Assembly (NCBI GenBank): GCA_964373675.1
Contig: CAYJVO010000001.1
Location: forward strand, 4,327 to 68,326
Direction: 5' to 3'
DNA length: 64,000 nucleotides
From: an uncultured Candidatus Saccharibacteria bacterium
GTDB lineage: Bacteria; Patescibacteriota; Minisyncoccia; UBA6257; WO2-44-18
This document shows positions 2,204-62,003 of the stretch, in pieces. The number at the start of each line of letters is the position of its first letter. Positions within the stretch are counted from its first letter, which is position 1. The notes below the pieces were generated by a model. The model was not told where the DNA came from. It made no database searches and saw nothing but the letters and a program-made list of their open reading frames with translations. Made by a program: the position numbers and the translations under genes.

Positions 2204-3748
2204 TTATTTTATTAAATAAACTAAAGCATCGCGGCTTTCCAGTTTTTTCTCAAAGCGAGAGTCGTTTTCTAGGAAGAAATTTACCGCCGGGTTTTGGTTT
2301 TTATTCAAAATGATATACTTAGCATTAAAATTGCTTTTTAAAACCTCATAAGTGTCCTCCAGCATTTCCCGCGTGCAGGCCTCGGCACCGCAGGTTTTTT
2401 TAGTCACTAAATCAGCGGACAGATAATGAAATTTCCAGTAAAGTTCGGGCGAATAAGCGTATTGGAAAATCGGGTCTAGGCCGCCGACATAATAGTTATG
2501 CCGGTTCCAATAAAAAAGCGGCGAAAAATGACTCCAATGCAAGTTAAAAACGATTTCGTTCAACCGGCTGCTTTCTTTTAGCCATAATGCCCCCTCCTTT
2601 AAGTAATCCGACGGATAGGCAAAACGATTAATGGAATTAATACTTTGATAAGCGGAGTAAGTAACGGAATACAGAGAAAAAATTATTAAAATCGTCGCCA
2701 CCCATTGCTGTGGTAAGTCCCGTCTAAAGGTTTTTAATGCTGGCAAAAGATAACTGACAACGGCGGCAATTAAAATCCATCCAAAAGCAACCCATAAGTT
2801 ATAAGTTCTGCGAGCGACAATAATGGACAGAAGAAACGAAATTATAGAAATAGCACCAGAGCTTAAAAGAATTGTTTTTTGCCAATTTTCCGCCCGATGA
2901 ATCCGTTTGGTTAATATCCAAGCCATTAAAACAGCCGCGGCTATCCAAATCAATAAATAAAGACCAAAATTAGAAAATAAAATTTTTAACCCCAGCGGAA
3001 AATTTTCTTCTCCAAAAAGCAGTGGCAAGCCGCTCTGTTTTTCAATGATCTGCCGCAAAACTTGGATGTAAAAAAGTTTGATTGCGTCGATAGGATTGGG
3101 TCTGGCTAGCCAGCCGACTGTAACTCCGAAAAATGCGCCCAAGCCGACTAGCCAAACAAAACGCTTTTCTATCAACAATTTAACCCCCAGTACTGCGGCG
3201 GCGATAAAAATTGGCAGCCACACGAAATTAAGATGGACCCAGGCAATGCCAAATGAAGCAAGAAACGCCCCCCAAAAATTTTCTTTGACAAAAAAATAAA
3301 ACAAAAGCGGCGCCAGCGCCAGAGAAATTAATTGGGGACGAACCATCAAAAGCTGGGTTAAAACATTGGGAGCGGAAAAAAAGAGTAAAACCGGCCATAA
3401 AAGTGGCCATTTAAAATTCAGCCGGCGCGCGATTAAAAAGTACAGTATTAAAAGTCCGGCCGTGAAAACTATACCCGCAATTTTAAATGACCAAGGTTCG
3501 GGGAGCCAGGAGAAGGGGATTAATAAAACTCCGAAACCGTGCCAAAGAGAAGCGGAAAAGGTTTTCATAACCGAGTACTGGGTCCAAGGGAAATCAACTG
3601 TAAAAATTCCCTTCTCGGTCAAAAGCCGGCTGAAGCCAAAATAGTAAAAAGTATCAGGGTCGGCGATATTGGCAGAGGCAAAATGAAAAACTGCCGAAAC
3701 AATAATCAGTAATAACAACGCAACCGGCCAATGATATTTTTGCGCCAT
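2204..3748 (-). CDS. Polytopic membrane protein, putative GT-C-like glycosyltransferase or hypothetical
   Basis: 514 aa with many predicted TM helices followed by a C-terminal soluble domain. Co-oriented and abutting the two glycosyltransferase genes. No diagnostic motif recognised. Confidence 0.4.
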   Translation of the reverse strand: MAQKYHWPVALLLLIIVSAVFHFASANIADPDTFYYFGFSRLLTEKGIFTVDFPWTQYSVMKTFSASLWHGFGVLLIPFSWLPEPWSFKIAGIVFTAGLLILYFLIARRLNFKWPLLWPVLLFFSAPNVLTQLLMVRPQLISLALAPLLFYFFVKENFWGAFLASFGIAWVHLNFVWLPIFIAAAVLGVKLLIEKRFVWLVGLGAFFGVTVGWLARPNPIDAIKLFYIQVLRQIIEKQSGLPLLFGEENFPLGLKILFSNFGLYLLIWIAAAVLMAWILTKRIHRAENWQKTILLSSGAISIISFLLSIIVARRTYNLWVAFGWILIAAVVSYLLPALKTFRRDLPQQWVATILIIFSLYSVTYSAYQSINSINRFAYPSDYLKEGALWLKESSRLNEIVFNLHWSHFSPLFYWNRHNYYVGGLDPIFQYAYSPELYWKFHYLSADLVTKKTCGAEACTREMLEDTYEVLKSNFNAKYIILNKNQNPAVNFFLENDSRFEKKLESRDALVYLIK

Positions 3749-3751
3749 ACT

Positions 3752-4738
3752 TTATTTCACTACTTCGCGAAGTTTCTGAAGCACTGAGATTAGAGATTCC
3801 AAAACCGAGGCCAACTCTTTTTTAATAGCCGAGACAGACTGAGTGGAGGCGCATAAACTGCTGAAGTTTGAACCGCCGGATTCGTCATACCAATAGCGGT
3901 AGTGCAGCTTGCTTTCCGTATCAACGTTTTCCGGATCAATTGCTCCGTAAATATCGCCTTGCTTAAACAGTAAAATTCCTTGGTAGCAAGAACTAATTCT
4001 ATTGGTGGTTGGATTAACGATGAGAGCTGAAGGATCATAAAGCCGAACGGCTTCTTTATGCTTTGTAAAAGTATAATTAGCGGCATCAGTAAAATTGCAA
4101 ATATTTGAAATGCCTTGGTAGCCAATTATCTCAACATTCTCGCACGCGGAGAATTGCGAGCGAGTTTGATTGGCAATGAAAGCAGCCGGATCGCCCGGCG
4201 TAAGATAGCCGCGATGTTCGCGGGCATAACCGCCAGTATAAACAAATTTAGCCGGCCCGATGCTGAAAGTTCGGTTATTATCCACAATCCCGGTGCCGGT
4301 TTTGATTAACGGTCCTACAGGCGCGAGGACGGGTGGGGGTGGCGTTGGGGCTGTAGTCGCGGTCGGTTGTTCTTCTACAGGAGGCGTTAGTGTCGGTGTT
4401 GGAGCGGCTGGAACTTGGGCAAGCTCTGCTAATTTGGCACGGGTTTTTGGACCAACAATTCCTACTGGTTCAATGCCGTTTTTTGTCTGAAATCTTTTTA
4501 CTGCCGCTTCAGTTAGTTTACCAAAATAACCAGTTGCCAAACCTTCGGGATAAAGTTCTTTGTCTTGAGCTAAATACTGCTGAATGGCCTTTACATCATC
4601 TCCGCGCGTGCCCAAAAACAAAGCCCGATTTATCACCGGCGCGACTATAGAAGGAGTTGTAGTTTGAGCTAGCGCTGTAATGCCGATTGCCAGCGTTAAA
4701 ATCAGACCCAATAATCTTTTAACACCCATTGGTTTCAT
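3752..4738 (-). CDS. Secreted protein with peptidoglycan-binding (PG_binding_1-like) domain and Pro/Thr-rich linker
   Basis: Signal peptide MKPMGVKRLLGLILTLAIGITALA. The LFLGTRGDDVKAIQQYL...GYFGKLTEAAVKRFQTKNGIEPVGIVGPKT motif matches the PG-binding repeat. A PT-rich linker is followed by an unknown C-terminal domain. Confidence 0.7.
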   Translation of the reverse strand: MKPMGVKRLLGLILTLAIGITALAQTTTPSIVAPVINRALFLGTRGDDVKAIQQYLAQDKELYPEGLATGYFGKLTEAAVKRFQTKNGIEPVGIVGPKTRAKLAELAQVPAAPTPTLTPPVEEQPTATTAPTPPPPVLAPVGPLIKTGTGIVDNNRTFSIGPAKFVYTGGYAREHRGYLTPGDPAAFIANQTRSQFSACENVEIIGYQGISNICNFTDAANYTFTKHKEAVRLYDPSALIVNPTTNRISSCYQGILLFKQGDIYGAIDPENVDTESKLHYRYWYDESGGSNFSSLCASTQSVSAIKKELASVLESLISVLQKLREVVK

Positions 4739-58298: not shown

Positions 58299-58721
58299 TT
58301 AACTTGTTGCTTCCTTCGGCATCTTCGCGCCATACCCCGACCGTTGCTGCCTTCTTGCTTCCACGCCAGAGGCGTCCAGGACGCCGCGCACAATATGATA
58401 ACGGACGCCCGGCAAATCTTTTGCGCGTCCGCCGCGAACCATAACCACTGAGTGTTCCTGTAAATTATGACCTTCTCCCGGAATATAAGCGGTTATTTCC
58501 ATTCCGTTGGTTAAACGCACGCGCGCCACTTTGCGCAAAGCAGAGTTTGGTTTTTTTGGCGTCGTAGTAAAAACCTTCAAACAGACGCCGCGCTTAAATG
58601 GCGACGCCACCTTGACCGGTTTATTTTTAAGCGTGTTGAAATAACGCCTCATGGCCGGCGCTTTGGACTTATACACAGTCACTTTTCTTCCCTTTTTAAT
58701 AAGCTGCCTGATGGTCGGCAT
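58299..58721 (-). CDS. rpsL: 30S ribosomal protein S12 with short C-terminal extension
   Basis: [12 protein letters not shown]...[11 protein letters not shown]...HNLQEHS motifs. 140 aa. Confidence 0.9.
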
Positions 58722-58760
58722 ACCGAAAAGATTAACAAATTATAAAGCTCAAAGTCAAAC

Positions 58761-59417
58761 ATGTTATACTTAAAATTAATGAATTATTTAACCGTTTTGC
58801 TGTTTCAGCTCTTCGTGCTCGTCTTTTCCGTTATCATTCACGAAGTATCTCATGGTTTAATGGCTTTACGCTTGGGGGATACTACTGCTAGAGACGCCGG
58901 CCGATTGACTTTAAACCCCTTAAAACACCTGGATTTTTTTGGTTCATTTATCGTGCCGATCACGCTTTTTCTGCTCTCCGGAGGCACTCTAGTTCTGGGT
59001 TGGGCAAAACCGGTTCCTTACAATCCTTACAATTTAAAAAACCCCAAATTAAGCGCCGCCCTTATCGGTCTGGCTGGTCCATTAAGCAATATTCTGGTGG
59101 CGCTGATTTTCGGATTGCTGATTCGCGTACCTCTGCCAGCAGAACTTGTTGTTCCCTTAACCCTGATGGCTTTTTTCAACTTTATAGTTTTTATAAATGT
59201 TTTGCTGGCGGTTTTTAATCTTGTACCTATTCCGCCGCTGGACGGTTCCAATATCCTCTTTTCTCTGATGCCGCGGCAGCTGGCTGCCATTCAAAGATTT
59301 TTGGAGCGCTACGGAATTTTTATTCTTATTTTCTTTATCTTTTTTGGATTTCAGTTTATTTTTCCGGTCGTCTACGCGCTCTATCGCCTCATTGTTGGCG
59401 GAGAAGTTGCCTTCTAA
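58761..59417 (+). CDS. M50 family membrane metalloprotease (SpoIVFB/site-2 protease-like, short)
   Basis: HEVSHGLMA (HExxH) inside TM1, and a second conserved LDG motif (PIPPLDGSNIL) in a later TM. Confidence 0.75.
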   Translation: MLYLKLMNYLTVLLFQLFVLVFSVIIHEVSHGLMALRLGDTTARDAGRLTLNPLKHLDFFGSFIVPITLFLLSGGTLVLGWAKPVPYNPYNLKNPKLSAALIGLAGPLSNILVALIFGLLIRVPLPAELVVPLTLMAFFNFIVFINVLLAVFNLVPIPPLDGSNILFSLMPRQLAAIQRFLERYGIFILIFFIFFGFQFIFPVVYALYRLIVGGEVAF

Positions 59418-59433
59418 AATCAGTGCGGGATAT

Positions 59434-59455
59434 TTACCCCCACACCTAGTTAGTT
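59434..59455. repeat. Left inverted repeat flanking the GIY-YIG mini-gene
   Basis: TTACCCCCACACCTAGTTAGTT. Its partner at 59666-59692 is AACTAACTAGGTGTGAGGGTTTACCCC, with a 15-bp perfect core CACACCTAGTTAGTT. Confidence 0.7.
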
Positions 59456-59463
59456 TCAATAGT

Positions 59464-59640
59464 ATGTTTTATGTTTATCTAATACAAAGCAAAAAAGATG
59501 ACGAATTGTATACTGGTTCTACAAATGATTTAAAAAGGAGGCTTTTGGAACATAATCAAGGATTAAATAAATCCACTAAACATCGCGGGTCATTTGAATT
59601 AATTTATTATGAAGCTTACAAATGCTTTGGGCCAACTTAA
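59464..59640 (+). CDS. Stand-alone GIY-YIG domain protein (58 aa)
   Basis: FYVYLIQSKKDDELYTGSTNDLKRRLLEHNQG is the classic GIY-YIG signature (Y.YIL.....LYVG.T.NL.RR..EH). Confidence 0.8.
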   Translation: MFYVYLIQSKKDDELYTGSTNDLKRRLLEHNQGLNKSTKHRGSFELIYYEAYKCFGPT

Positions 59641-59665
59641 ACGTCGGGTATCCAAAAGCCTCAAA

Positions 59666-59692
59666 AACTAACTAGGTGTGAGGGTTTACCCC
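59666..59692. repeat. Right inverted repeat flanking the GIY-YIG mini-gene
   Basis: Reverse complement of the left repeat, with the two differences noted there. Confidence 0.7.
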
Positions 59693-59735
59693 TTAGGTAT
59701 TTTAACTTATAATATTCTCGGTTCTTTAATAGTGG

Positions 59736-60977
59736 TTGATGAAGATAGGCATCCTCTTATCTCTATCAATATTTTCTCAAGATTCGGAATCCGTATTTAA
59801 AGCCGCCGCCGAATCAACAGTAATTATGCCCGCAGAAAATGTCTTAATGGGCGGCTTCAGCCCGAACCGGATGTCCACCGGCGTTCACGATGATCTTTTT
59901 GCCCGTTGTATTGTTTTTGAAAAGAACAATCAAAAAATGGCTTGGGTTAGCTTAGATCTACTGGGATTTTTGCGCTATGATGTGTTTCTTGTTAAAAAGG
60001 AGCTGGCTGAAAGAAGAACCCTTGATCCTTCATCGGTATTTATTTTCAGCACCCATCAGCACTCCGGTCCGGATACCCTCGGTCTTTGGGGCAGGATACC
60101 GATAGCCACGCCAGGACGCAATGAAAAATACTTGGCGGAAGTCCGACAGAAAATCGTTAAACTGATTGCCGAAACAGCGGCCAAAACCGAGCCGGCCAAT
60201 CTAAAAATAATCAAAACGGTCAGCAAGGAATTTTCCAAAAACCGACGCGAACCTGATCTCTTGGATAAAGACATCACGATACTGCTGGTAAGCAATGAAA
60301 AAAAACATATTGCCACGATTGTAAACTTCGGCTGCCATCCGGAGGTGATGTTTCGCAGCAATACCCTGATTTCCGCTGATTTTCCGGGCGTATTGGCAAA
60401 ACACCTGGAAGCTGCGATGGGCGGGACAACAATTTTCATTAACGGCATTTTAGGCGGGATGGTAACGCCGAATACGGCTGTTCTTAAAACCAATTACAGC
60501 GGCTTTGACAAATGTGAAGCAATGGGGAAATTACTGTCCCGTTGGGTAATTGATGCGGTGATTCAAAATCAAAAAGAAAAAATAAAACCTGACTGGACTA
60601 TAAAAACCGAGCACATCAAAATCCCGCTGGAGAATCACGCTTTTAAATTAGCCGTAAAGCACGGAGCGATTCCCAAATCTGAAGAAGTATTTCAAGACTG
60701 GCATCTTATAACCGAGGTGAGCGTTATAAACCTTGGTGGCGTATCAATTTTGCTGGTTCCCGGTGAAATCCTTCCCAAACTCGGTTTAGAAATCAAGGCA
60801 ATGTTTCCGGGTAAATACACAATGATGTTTACTTTGGCCAACGATGAGATTGGCTACATCATTCATCCTGATGATTGGTCGCGCGATCTTTACCGCTACG
60901 AACGCTCCATGTCCGTCGGCCCGAAAGCGGGAAAAATAATTTTGGAAACATTCAAAAAAATAGCGGTTGATAAATAG
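59736..60977 (+). CDS. Neutral/alkaline ceramidase-like hydrolase (short)
   Basis: Signal peptide. The N-terminal region ...IMPAENVLMGGF...GVHDDLFARCIVFE...WVSLDLLG follows the neutral ceramidase N-domain pattern. At 413 aa it is shorter than typical. Confidence 0.5.
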   Translation: MMKIGILLSLSIFSQDSESVFKAAAESTVIMPAENVLMGGFSPNRMSTGVHDDLFARCIVFEKNNQKMAWVSLDLLGFLRYDVFLVKKELAERRTLDPSSVFIFSTHQHSGPDTLGLWGRIPIATPGRNEKYLAEVRQKIVKLIAETAAKTEPANLKIIKTVSKEFSKNRREPDLLDKDITILLVSNEKKHIATIVNFGCHPEVMFRSNTLISADFPGVLAKHLEAAMGGTTIFINGILGGMVTPNTAVLKTNYSGFDKCEAMGKLLSRWVIDAVIQNQKEKIKPDWTIKTEHIKIPLENHAFKLAVKHGAIPKSEEVFQDWHLITEVSVINLGGVSILLVPGEILPKLGLEIKAMFPGKYTMMFTLANDEIGYIIHPDDWSRDLYRYERSMSVGPKAGKIILETFKKIAVDK

Positions 60978-61180: not shown

Positions 61181-61214
61181 AGTTTAAAACAAAAAATCCC
61201 GCTTCTCAAGCGGG
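61181..61214 (-). terminator. Rho-independent terminator overlapping the stop of the upstream gene
   Basis: Minus strand: CCCGCTTGAGAAGCGGG followed by ATTTTTTGTTTT. Confidence 0.6.
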
Positions 61215-62003
61215 GTTTTCGTTTTTCTTAATCAATTCAGCAATCTTTTCAAACGCAATTGTGGATTCTTTAAAACGTTTTTCAATGATCGCGAGGCACT
61301 TTTGACAACCGCTTTCCAAGTGTTCCATAAATTCTTTTTCTGTTTCCCCAGTCTCCAGACATTTAACTACGGCGCTCCGCCATTTTTCTTCTACGGCTAA
61401 AATCATATTCGTCGCCTGCAAAACCTTATTGGATTGATACCAGGATTCCACAGTGTCCGGATGCCACCAACCAGTTAACTGCGGCTGAATTATTTTTTCC
61501 GGCATATGAAATGGCGCCCGTCCCGGAGACAAAATCATGCTTAATTCGTGGTTGCCTTTTTCTTGCCGGATTCTTATAGGTTTTTGTCCCTGAAACCAAG
61601 TCCCGAATCTAACAACACACCGACGAATCGCAATATCCTGCATATGCGTGCGCTTAGTTTCTTGGGCTAAGAAATTAAGCCCGGAAGTAATATTGCTTGG
61701 CTCATCGTCATAAACCTCCGATGCTTCGCTGACCAACCGACCTAAAATCTCCGGCCGTAATTTTAAAAAGTTAAAATACGCATCCTCATAAATCATGCAG
61801 GCGCCGAGAAAATCTAAAGTTTGATCGCCCCACTGCCATACTAATTGCCAATTTCCTTTCCCATATTTTTGGTCCCACTCTTTTTGTTTTTCATCACGAT
61901 GTTTTCCTAAATACCCTGGCCGCTCAATCGTAATCCACACATTCATTATTAAACTCAAAAACGCTTTCAGTAGTATAAAATAGCTAACCGCTCCACGCAA
62001 CAA
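61206..62003 (-). CDS. Hypothetical protein directly downstream of thyA
   Basis: 265 aa (246 aa from the alternative start at 61946). Trp-rich, no motif recognised. Stop-to-start distance from thyA is 30 nt. Confidence 0.5.
   Translation of the reverse strand: MLRGAVSYFILLKAFLSLIMNVWITIERPGYLGKHRDEKQKEWDQKYGKGNWQLVWQWGDQTLDFLGACMIYEDAYFNFLKLRPEILGRLVSEASEVYDDEPSNITSGLNFLAQETKRTHMQDIAIRRCVVRFGTWFQGQKPIRIRQEKGNHELSMILSPGRAPFHMPEKIIQPQLTGWWHPDTVESWYQSNKVLQATNMILAVEEKWRSAVVKCLETGETEKEFMEHLESGCQKCLAIIEKRFKESTIAFEKIAELIKKNENPA

Follow-up and report, generated by a model that had tools for sequence, protein, structure and literature searches.

The stretch of DNA described here is a 64,000-nt piece of contig CAYJVO010000001.1 from an uncultured Candidatus Saccharibacteria bacterium, and the whole of it is referred to as the window. 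A short open reading frame (ORF) for a GIY-YIG nuclease domain lies in the spacer that separates an M50 protease gene from one resembling a ceramidase gene. This placement had been given in a first-pass annotation of the window and is borne out by Pfam matches to Peptidase_M50 and Ceramidase_alk. The ORF and the repeats around it form a unit at 59433-59692 that will be called the window copy, and the annotation had proposed this unit as a possible minimal mobile cassette.

The ORF is bracketed by an inverted repeat, as annotated, and the arms (ACCCCCACACCTAGTTAGTTT and AAACTAACTAGGTGTGAGGGT) measure 21 nt with one mismatch (95% complementary, 208 nt between the arms) rather than the 22-27 bp given before. 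The 15-bp core of the arms, CACACCTAGTTAGTT, held up. With up to two mismatches allowed it is found in the window only at the two arm sites, 0.05 matches are expected in shuffled sequence, and two matches were reached in none of 100 shuffles. A chance origin of the inverted repeat was rejected on these figures. The TTACCCC noted on both outer sides is likewise real and is part of an 8-nt direct repeat, TTTACCCC, that resembles a target-site duplication.

The 58-aa product matches the Pfam GIY-YIG profile (PF01541) at E = 1.8e-15 over profile positions 1-57 of 78 only, and the NCBIfam GIY-YIG matches are all below threshold. Pfam and protein alignments show that FYVY, LYTG and R26 (the GIY and YIG strands and a conserved Arg) are retained. 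The catalytic Glu of the second helix (R61-E62 in the family) and the downstream Asn/Lys, which are kept in intact relatives, are gone. In the protein alignment the window product breaks off after YYEAYK, and the relatives go on with SEEDARxREHNLKLRANALxQLKRRxxKSL. A DNA alignment with four intact relatives places a 50-nt gap in the window copy after GAAGCTTACA (junction ~59620/59621) and one extra A within the A-run at 59663-59667. The ancestral stop codon, TAG at 59673-59675, lies within the right arm, and the C-terminal peptide of the ancestral gene, KLTNALGQLKRRVSKSLKN, is still legible in another frame. The annotation had read the ORF as coding for the GIY-YIG core alone. Rather than a minimal gene, it is a frameshifted, truncated pseudogene that lacks the catalytic Arg-Glu helix. 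The product ends ahead of the second (catalytic) helix, which rules out activity as a nuclease. Over 2021 nt, with the lesions among them, the sequence agrees at every position with an independent Logan assembly (L174, run ERR3478686).

The features are collected in Table 1. The inner 12-nt repeat listed there also persists as a pairing in two relatives (L001 and L014) through synonymous compensatory changes on both sides (GACTTTTAG/CTAAAAGTC); RNAalifold did not recover this helix (59538-49 / 59651-62) as a family consensus, and it is an observation on a subclade only. Rfam gave nothing credible in the window region and no intron. Exact look-ups of the GIY-YIG, M50 and ceramidase products as first delimited gave no match, and the ceramidase was matched through the start used in the database.

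Table 1. Positions in the window of the GIY-YIG unit, its repeats and the adjoining host genes
Feature	Position	Strand	Basis or remark
Upstream host gene, Peptidase_M50 family	58761..59417	+	Pfam
Left copy of 8-nt direct repeat TTTACCCC, target-site-duplication-like	59433..59440	+	Overlaps outer end of left arm
Left arm of terminal inverted repeat ACCCCCACACCTAGTTAGTTT	59436..59456	+	Ends 7 nt ahead of ATG; outer motif CCCCCACACC family-conserved
Truncated 58-codon frame	59464..59640	+	N-terminal GIY-YIG part (b1, b2, a1, b3), then frameshifted tail CFGPT and stop
Remnant of ancestral 86-codon gene	59464..59675	+	50-nt deletion and 1-nt insertion by DNA alignment
Inner 12-nt repeat GAGGCTTTTGGA, codons of RRLLEH	59538..59549	+	Perfect complement of 59651-59662; second helix in RNA and DNA folds
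Partner of inner repeat TCCAAAAGCCTC, codons of SKSL	59651..59662	+	Pairs with 59538-59549
Right arm of terminal inverted repeat AAACTAACTAGGTGTGAGGGT	59665..59685	+	Covers last codons and stop of ancestral gene
Right copy of direct repeat TTTACCCC	59685..59692	+	Also the -35-like hexamer TTTACC of the ceramidase promoter
Promoter-like site of ceramidase-like gene: TTTACC, 17 nt, TATAAT	59685..59713	+	TATAAT-CGGTTCTTT block conserved in L175 and L176
Downstream host gene, neutral/alkaline ceramidase-like (Ceramidase_alk)	59736..60977	+	Pfam; database product P0121, 100% identity, starts at 59739

The cassette family and its repeats

Among 5.8 billion proteins searched, 671 relatives were found, the great majority of 84-86 aa and with identities of up to 92%; those with a named source come from Parcubacteria, Patescibacteria and related groups. 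Additionally, a scan of one genome per species (185,579 species represented) confirmed at least 542 hits, from which 80 loci were retained. The inverted-repeat counts reported below were made on 84 homologous loci from Patescibacteria. An intact cassette is an 84-86-codon, single-domain, UPF0213/Slx1-like GIY-YIG gene enclosed by a 15-23-bp inverted repeat, with the left arm just 5' of the ATG or over it and the right arm over the last codons and the stop.

The AlphaFold (AF2) model of one intact relative (P0009) has a predicted local distance difference test (pLDDT) score of 85.5, with strands at residues 2-9, 15-20 and 44-52 and helices at 23-31, 55-67 and 69-82. The invariant R61-E62 is placed on the second helix (a2), and the protein is modeled as a single bare domain of ~85 aa without a DNA-binding domain. 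From what is known of I-TevI and UvrC, the Glu of this pair is the counterpart of the metal-binding E75 of I-TevI. By profile search and Foldseek, the closest solved structures are those of the UPF0213 proteins BH0048 and EF2693, followed by the Slx1 nuclease domain, I-TevI and UvrC.

The 64-kb window holds a single family copy. Second copies within 2.5 kb were read out as ORFs at two loci (L061 and L079), and further family matches are found at L018, L019, L078 and L090. Truncated copies recur in the family (P0007, P0048, P0055, L055 and L089).

An inverted repeat that hugs the ORF with a score of at least 12 was found at 66 of the 84 loci, compared to 6% in a swap control in which left flanks were joined to the right flanks of other loci and 0% in shuffled sequences. 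The outer part of the arms, CCCCCACACC/GGTGTGGGGG, is conserved across the family as [AG]CCCC[CT]CAC(A)CC and its complement. The inner part varies by locus yet co-varies between the two arms, including at synonymous positions of the last codons; at L009 the arms ATCCCCACACCTAATTTGTCT-ATG...AGACAAATTAGGTGTGGGGAT are paired at 21 of 21 positions. The same arrangement is seen around database relatives between gatA and a hypothetical gene (P0005; the context of locus L001), between the genes of an FtsX-like permease and its ABC ATPase (P0009; the context of locus L009), and after a T2SSE ATPase gene (P0004).

Covariation was measured over the outer ten pairs of an alignment of 43 cassettes. Paired cells make up 96.1% of the total versus 77.7% in shuffles (a level that none of 500 shuffles raised to the observed one), and 41-60% of the cells are paired when the partners are slid as a control. 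Changes on both sides were counted in 60 cells, with 14.2 expected, and changes on one side in 3. The mismatches across loci comprise 16 G.T and 18 C.A with no strand bias, and G-U pairs are nearly absent. This wobble-bias test for an RNA helix hence gave no support for a role in the sense RNA only, and the complementarity of the arms is therefore strictly Watson-Crick. Watson-Crick covariation is more in keeping with a constraint at the level of DNA, or with a copying process, than with an RNA helix in the sense strand. Matches to the arm motif CCCCCACACC in the window (3, with 1.7 expected) do not amount to an enrichment, and a Neisseria-like expansion of the repeat was not seen there.

Several other arrangements of the arm sequences were observed. 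At eight loci (L028, L034, L036, L041, L044, L046, L060 and L066) a left-arm-like motif (ACCCGCACACTTA...) lies 3' of the gene in direct orientation, and a promoter-like tatgttattatttata precedes the ATG; the first six of these have a right flank of 200-320 nt in common at 75-89% identity. Solo palindromes composed of a left arm and a right arm are present in L046 and L029. A DnaA-box-like TTATCCACA/TGTGGATAA adjoins the arms in L027, L029, L033, L070, L073, L078 and L081, and the arm-plus-spacer sequence TTATCCCCCACA resembles a DnaA box. The cassettes beside such sequences may lie near replication origins or may target the boxes.

Insertion sites and the host locus

At many loci, direct repeats of 7-20 nt straddle the outer ends of the arms. 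Repeats of at least 7 nt were found in 27 of 65 loci (swap control 3.9%) and of at least 9 nt in 19 of the 65 (control 0.5%). The candidate target-duplication signal consists of the 8-nt repeat of the window copy and of family repeats that are variable in length, overlap the arm ends and are missing at many loci. Structural RNA genes adjoin or contain the cassette at approximately one third of the loci, and the remaining cassettes lie between protein genes, co-oriented with them more often than not. Cassettes that are 82-88% identical in DNA sequence occur in unrelated flanks (L027/L029/L033, L172/L173/window and L058/L073/L084). The annotation had favored a self-contained unit over a housekeeping gene, and this preference agrees with repeats that hug homologous ORFs in unrelated contexts.

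The cassette lies directly 5' of a tRNA on the same strand at ~19 loci, and the direct repeat in this subgroup corresponds to tRNA positions 1-10/11 (for example, GGGCCGTTAGC). Cassettes are also found at tRNA 3' ends (L038, L054, L058 and L084), of which L054 is in the opposite orientation. The outer bases of the arms match the abutted tRNA, as for CCCC with GGGG of tRNA-Ala and GGCCCG with CGGGCC of tRNA-Pro. The second cassette of L079, located 5' of tRNA-Pro, has the arms GGCCCGTTAGAAAAT/ATTTTCTAACGGGCC and the repeat CGGGCCGTGG; the match of its arm ends to the tRNA-Pro acceptor sequence suggests that the ends are matched to the target. Arrays in the order cassette-tRNA-cassette-tRNA were noted at L079 (552-809), L061 (2971-3210) and L090 (~2900-3150). 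A second, more distant GIY-YIG gene in L001 (86 aa, 3924-4184) ends within the 5' end of tRNA-Lys (4175-4250), and GCGCCCGTAGCTCA of this tRNA is duplicated upstream of the ORF (region 3873-4250); it is a different type of cassette with the same tRNA-5' habit.

Insertions are also found inside RNase P RNA. The RNase P RNA match of L017 spans 653 nt (2398-3050) and contains a 291-nt GIY-YIG cassette in the loop of the P9 hairpin, with the arms continuing the P9 helix. The cassette of L053 also lies within RNase P RNA, which is interrupted after the GGAAAGTCCGAAC region. At L059, L075 and L055 the cassettes adjoin RNase P RNA or transfer-messenger RNA (tmRNA).

At the host locus in the window, the -35-like hexamer of the ceramidase promoter comes from the right copy of the direct repeat, and the duplication therefore kept the host promoter intact. 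The annotation had suggested a comparison with relatives for an empty site, and one was found in L176, in which the M50 and ceramidase genes are separated by a 64-nt spacer with neither a GIY-YIG gene nor the repeat. The TATAAT...CGGTTCTTT block ahead of the ceramidase gene is common to the window, L175 and L176. When the 252-nt unit (from one repeat copy to the next) is subtracted from the 321-nt spacer of the window, 69 nt remain, which is near the 64 nt of L176. The unit was ~301 bp long before the lesions.

The gene order of L175 is that of the window, with EF-G, S7 and S12 on the minus strand followed by M50 and ceramidase. Its M50-ceramidase spacer of 314 nt holds a different, GC-rich element of ~186 nt (2945-3120) that is closed by a long stem (GCGGGATGTCTTAT/ATAAGACATCCCGC). 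This insert folds to -101.5 kcal/mol (z = -8.95), has no Rfam match, and may be an unknown structured RNA or a miniature inverted-repeat transposable element (MITE). The left arm of the insert has GCGGGAT in common with the left flank of the window copy (59424-59430). The M50-ceramidase spacer looks like a hot spot for insertion.

A search with the ceramidase gave, besides P0121, relatives at 58-63% identity. The 80 loci (L092-L171) obtained by scanning metagenomes with the M50 protein reach no more than 64% identity and are uninformative on the empty site. The annotation had also named conservation of the gene at this locus across distant relatives as the result that would make it an ordinary UPF0213-type gene; a GIY-YIG gene downstream of M50 was found in none of the 80 M50 loci, and a ceramidase gene at that position was also found in none. 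In most of these loci rpsL comes directly after M50 and is read from the same strand. The rpsL-rpsG-fusA genes lie upstream on the opposite strand in the window (58299-59417 compared), L175 and L111, a local rearrangement specific to the lineage. No Pfam match at E <= 0.01 was obtained for a 265-aa ORF on the minus strand at 61206-62003, 3' of the ceramidase gene.

Mobility, proposed mechanism and alternatives

We consider it likely that the window unit is a decayed copy of a ~300-bp selfish GIY-YIG cassette family of Patescibacteria whose arms would act as DNA. The cassette is family-wide and probably mobile. A mobile cassette is supported at the level of the family by the repeats as a family trait, the direct repeats, the diverse contexts and the cassette-free relative. 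The proposal of a mobile cassette is thus supported for the family, and that of a minimal active element fails for the window copy, which is unable to be active. The window copy alone is an inert remnant of little consequence, and the interest lies in the family.

Single-domain GIY-YIG nucleases of the Ssn type cut single-stranded DNA beside hairpin repeats that flank their own genes (PMC11893778). In the mechanism that we propose, the arms would act at the DNA level and would pair in single-stranded or extruded DNA, forming a stem from which the gene loops out. The nuclease encoded by this gene, specific for structures or hairpins, would nick the base of the stem, by analogy with Ssn beside hairpins and Slx1 on branched DNA, and excision and insertion would be finished by host repair or ligation. 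Sites that resemble or complement the arm ends would be preferred for insertion, giving variable duplications of 8-12 bp. As a side effect the arms would also close a stem in RNA, so that insertions in or beside structured RNA genes would be tolerated; the insertions in RNase P RNA and beside tRNAs may be tolerated because the arms necessarily form such a stem. The window copy would have inserted in the M50-ceramidase spacer at TTTACCCC, overlapping the ceramidase -35, with the site then duplicated. Afterwards a 50-nt deletion that took the catalytic Arg-Glu helix with it, and a 1-nt insertion, would have turned it into an inert MITE-like remnant.

A stronger form of this proposal is that the ~300-bp units are a new and the smallest class of autonomous mobile element, in which the 85-aa nuclease reads the stem of its own ends in single-stranded DNA and insertion is guided by base pairing to tRNA, RNase P RNA and similar sites of CPR genomes. 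We put this form forward tentatively and regard it as rather unlikely. Insertion of the gene into the loop of a pre-existing palindrome was rejected on the order left arm, gene, right arm and on the inner arm, which includes the last codons of the gene.

A number of points weigh against a cassette that moves at the DNA level. The GIY-YIG domain cleaves DNA and does not join it, and we know of no bacterial GIY-YIG transposase. The direct repeats range from 5 to 20 nt and are absent in about half of the loci, and such variable or missing repeats are a misfit with a fixed staggered cut. The window has one copy only and the arm motif is unenriched there, and L028, L034, L036, L041, L044, L060 and L066 carry the left-arm motif 3' of the gene without a proper inverted repeat. 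Several hundred nt of right flank are common to some loci, and thus part of the distribution is due to vertical descent. The empty-site relative L176 is distant (ceramidase identity 58%), so that loss there and gain in the lineage of the window are indistinguishable, the direct repeat aside. Finally, the arms form good RNA stems and the L017 insert extends a native RNase P helix, and therefore a role at the level of RNA is conceivable.

Such a role is central to the best of the alternatives, which is possible, if unlikely. It holds that a free-standing homing endonuclease cuts conserved targets such as the ends of tRNA or RNase P RNA genes, that the gene is copied in by break repair, and that the inverted repeat is under selection as it closes the insert into a hairpin in the transcript, which keeps the host RNA or operon functional; RNase III may cut this hairpin, as it does in the intervening sequences of rRNA. 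The arms of the L017 insert that extend the P9 helix, the second RNase P RNA insertion in L053, and the cassettes directly 5' of same-strand tRNAs speak for it. GIY-YIG ORFs have been described in CPR rRNA genes within insertions that are not introns, in a context in which intervening sequences of the RNase III type are discussed (PMC11270868), and the predicted RNA fold of the window unit yields a terminal stem (z = -5.15). The compensatory changes that keep the repeat, including those at synonymous sites of the last codons, also fit an RNA helix, but G-U pairs are nearly absent from them, one-sided changes are few beside the double ones (3 vs 60), and the balance of G.T and C.A is unusual for a helix in the sense strand. 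Homing does not readily account for tRNA-His 3' ends that are abutted in both orientations (L054 versus L058 and L084). Furthermore, homology-driven homing is not expected to leave flanking direct repeats, the protein, at 85 aa, lacks a domain with which to bind a long DNA target, and the majority of copies lie between protein genes, where there is no RNA fold to protect.

An improbable alternative is a non-autonomous cassette, in which a recombinase or transposase supplied from elsewhere recognizes the arms, with the GIY-YIG gene as cargo, such as a defense, anti-defense or addiction nuclease. This would supply the joining activity, as GIY-YIG enzymes are unable to ligate, and it would agree with dead copies such as the window copy that retain near-perfect arms and with the solo arm palindromes beside some genes (L046 and L029), as known for repeats mobilized in trans. 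However, the GIY-YIG gene alone is common to all units while the flanking genes change by locus, and the right arm is embedded in the last codons of this gene. CPR genomes are small, and no common neighboring recombinase turned up in the 84 loci, although no systematic search for one was made. An ordinary host UPF0213-type gene with a downstream terminator hairpin and an incidental upstream complement is very improbable, for all that UPF0213 proteins are the closest solved relatives and a weak terminator-like hairpin is called at 59679-59695, since the gene is a frameshifted pseudogene, the spacer lacks it in L176 and holds another element in L175, none of the 80 M50 loci has it, and homologs in unrelated contexts have inverted and direct repeats around them at frequencies well beyond those of the controls.

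If the nuclease of the DNA-acting cassette moves its own unit, its transposition chemistry would be one that is not known from bacteria, and no smaller autonomous element has been described. A natural function would then also be given to a large uncharacterized branch of UPF0213-like GIY-YIG proteins, the reading of DNA secondary structure by bare GIY-YIG domains, as found for Ssn, would be extended, and the many CPR insertions in or beside structural RNA genes would be easier to account for. Structure-dependent cutters specific for the arms could be useful reagents, as proposed for Ssn. If the unit does not move itself, the family would still provide clean markers of horizontal exchange among Patescibacteria, and it would still show that a closing stem lets an insert reside in RNase P RNA.

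Comparison with known systems

The solved proteins most similar to the family are the UPF0213/YhbQ-type proteins BH0048 (PDB 1zg2) and EF2693 (PDB 1ywl), with profile E-values of 5e-12 and 1e-7, respectively. The best structural match to the family model is 1zg2 (Foldseek 2.8e-4), and the Slx1 nuclease domain aligns with a TM score of 0.63-0.66 and a root-mean-square deviation of 1.4-2.3 A over ~70 residues. The b-b-a-b-a core and the conserved Tyr, Tyr, Arg and Glu positions are shared with UPF0213 and Slx1, whereas the catalytic helix is missing in the window copy. Slx1 is a structure-specific nuclease that carries a RING/zinc domain and needs Slx4. UPF0213 genes are, to our knowledge, treated as ordinary chromosomal genes of unknown role, and we know of no description of terminal repeats or target duplications around them. 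The stable, locus-conserved position of a chromosomal gene was not seen here (L176, L175, the 80 M50 loci and the unrelated contexts of homologs).

Homing endonucleases such as I-TevI and the T4 Seg proteins have the same catalytic fold (1ln0, 1mk0) and are likewise small selfish genes between or within conserved genes, prone to decay and with a preference for conserved RNA genes. They have a linker and a DNA-binding domain, whereas the family proteins are bare domains and Rfam gave no intron; terminal inverted repeats and flanking direct repeats are foreign to homing endonuclease genes. Membership in this class was rejected on the bare 85-aa domain and the lack of an intron by Rfam.

The family resembles small insertion sequences and MITEs, and IS200/IS605 and REP/RAYT elements, in its terminal inverted repeats, duplication-like direct repeats, varied sites and decayed non-autonomous copies and in the proposed reliance on DNA secondary structure and on sites similar to its own ends. 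A length of ~300 bp is less than half that of the smallest known autonomous insertion sequences. Unlike insertion sequences, the cassette has a GIY-YIG gene as its sole ORF and no known class of transposase (DDE, DEDD, HUH, serine or tyrosine). In IS200/IS605, each end forms its own hairpin and no duplications are left, which differs from the family. An integron cassette was rejected: such a cassette has a single 3' attC hairpin and is arrayed beside an integrase, whereas here the halves of a repeat lie at both ends, the insertions are single and scattered, and no integrase neighbor is present in the loci read.

The Ssn nucleases (SsnA, Neisseria meningitidis; cd10448) are, like the family proteins, single-domain GIY-YIG enzymes of ~85-95 aa without a DNA-binding domain, and their genes have on either side repeats that can adopt secondary structure as DNA (PMC11893778). 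The intact relatives, at 84-86 aa, fall within the Ssn definition of a single domain of <150 aa, and cutting of single-stranded DNA beside a hairpin is the activity that, by analogy, the cassette nuclease may have. Chenal et al. (2025) likened NTS-ssnA-NTS to an insertion sequence (PMC11893778). In its proposed working, the cassette comes closest to these NTS-ssnA-NTS units and to small insertion sequences or MITEs. The Ssn flank is a self-contained 20-50-nt NTS/SRM hairpin with up to hundreds of genomic copies (PMC11893778), whereas the cassette flanks are the halves of one long-range repeat. Neither the window nor the 500-nt flanking sequences of the 84 loci contain a match to the published SRM motif (HGTCWY..YYVSBRH..WNVSBRG..RNCYNB). 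Additionally, the role given to Ssn is that of a domesticated regulator of transformation and not that of a moving cassette with target duplications (PMC11893778). The lack of the flank motif, and UPF0213 as the closest solved sequences, would set the family apart from Ssn. The literature searched holds no description of inverted-repeat-bounded GIY-YIG cassettes in CPR. The annotation had stated that some GIY-YIG domains were recently described as small transposon-associated nucleases; the searched literature does not describe a transposon nuclease of this kind, and Ssn, whose flank motif is absent here, is the nearest (PMC11893778).

The last comparison is with rRNA intervening sequences and the non-intron insertions of CPR rRNA genes. 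No repeats, duplications or copies outside rRNA genes are described for these insertions (PMC11270868), and the window copy lies between protein genes. They are like the cassettes of L017 and L053 in being stem-closed inserts in a structured RNA gene, and they share with the family the phylum-level hosts and the presence of GIY-YIG ORFs (PMC11270868). GIY-YIG genes are also among those reported to have been horizontally transferred from Patescibacteria (PMC12455944).

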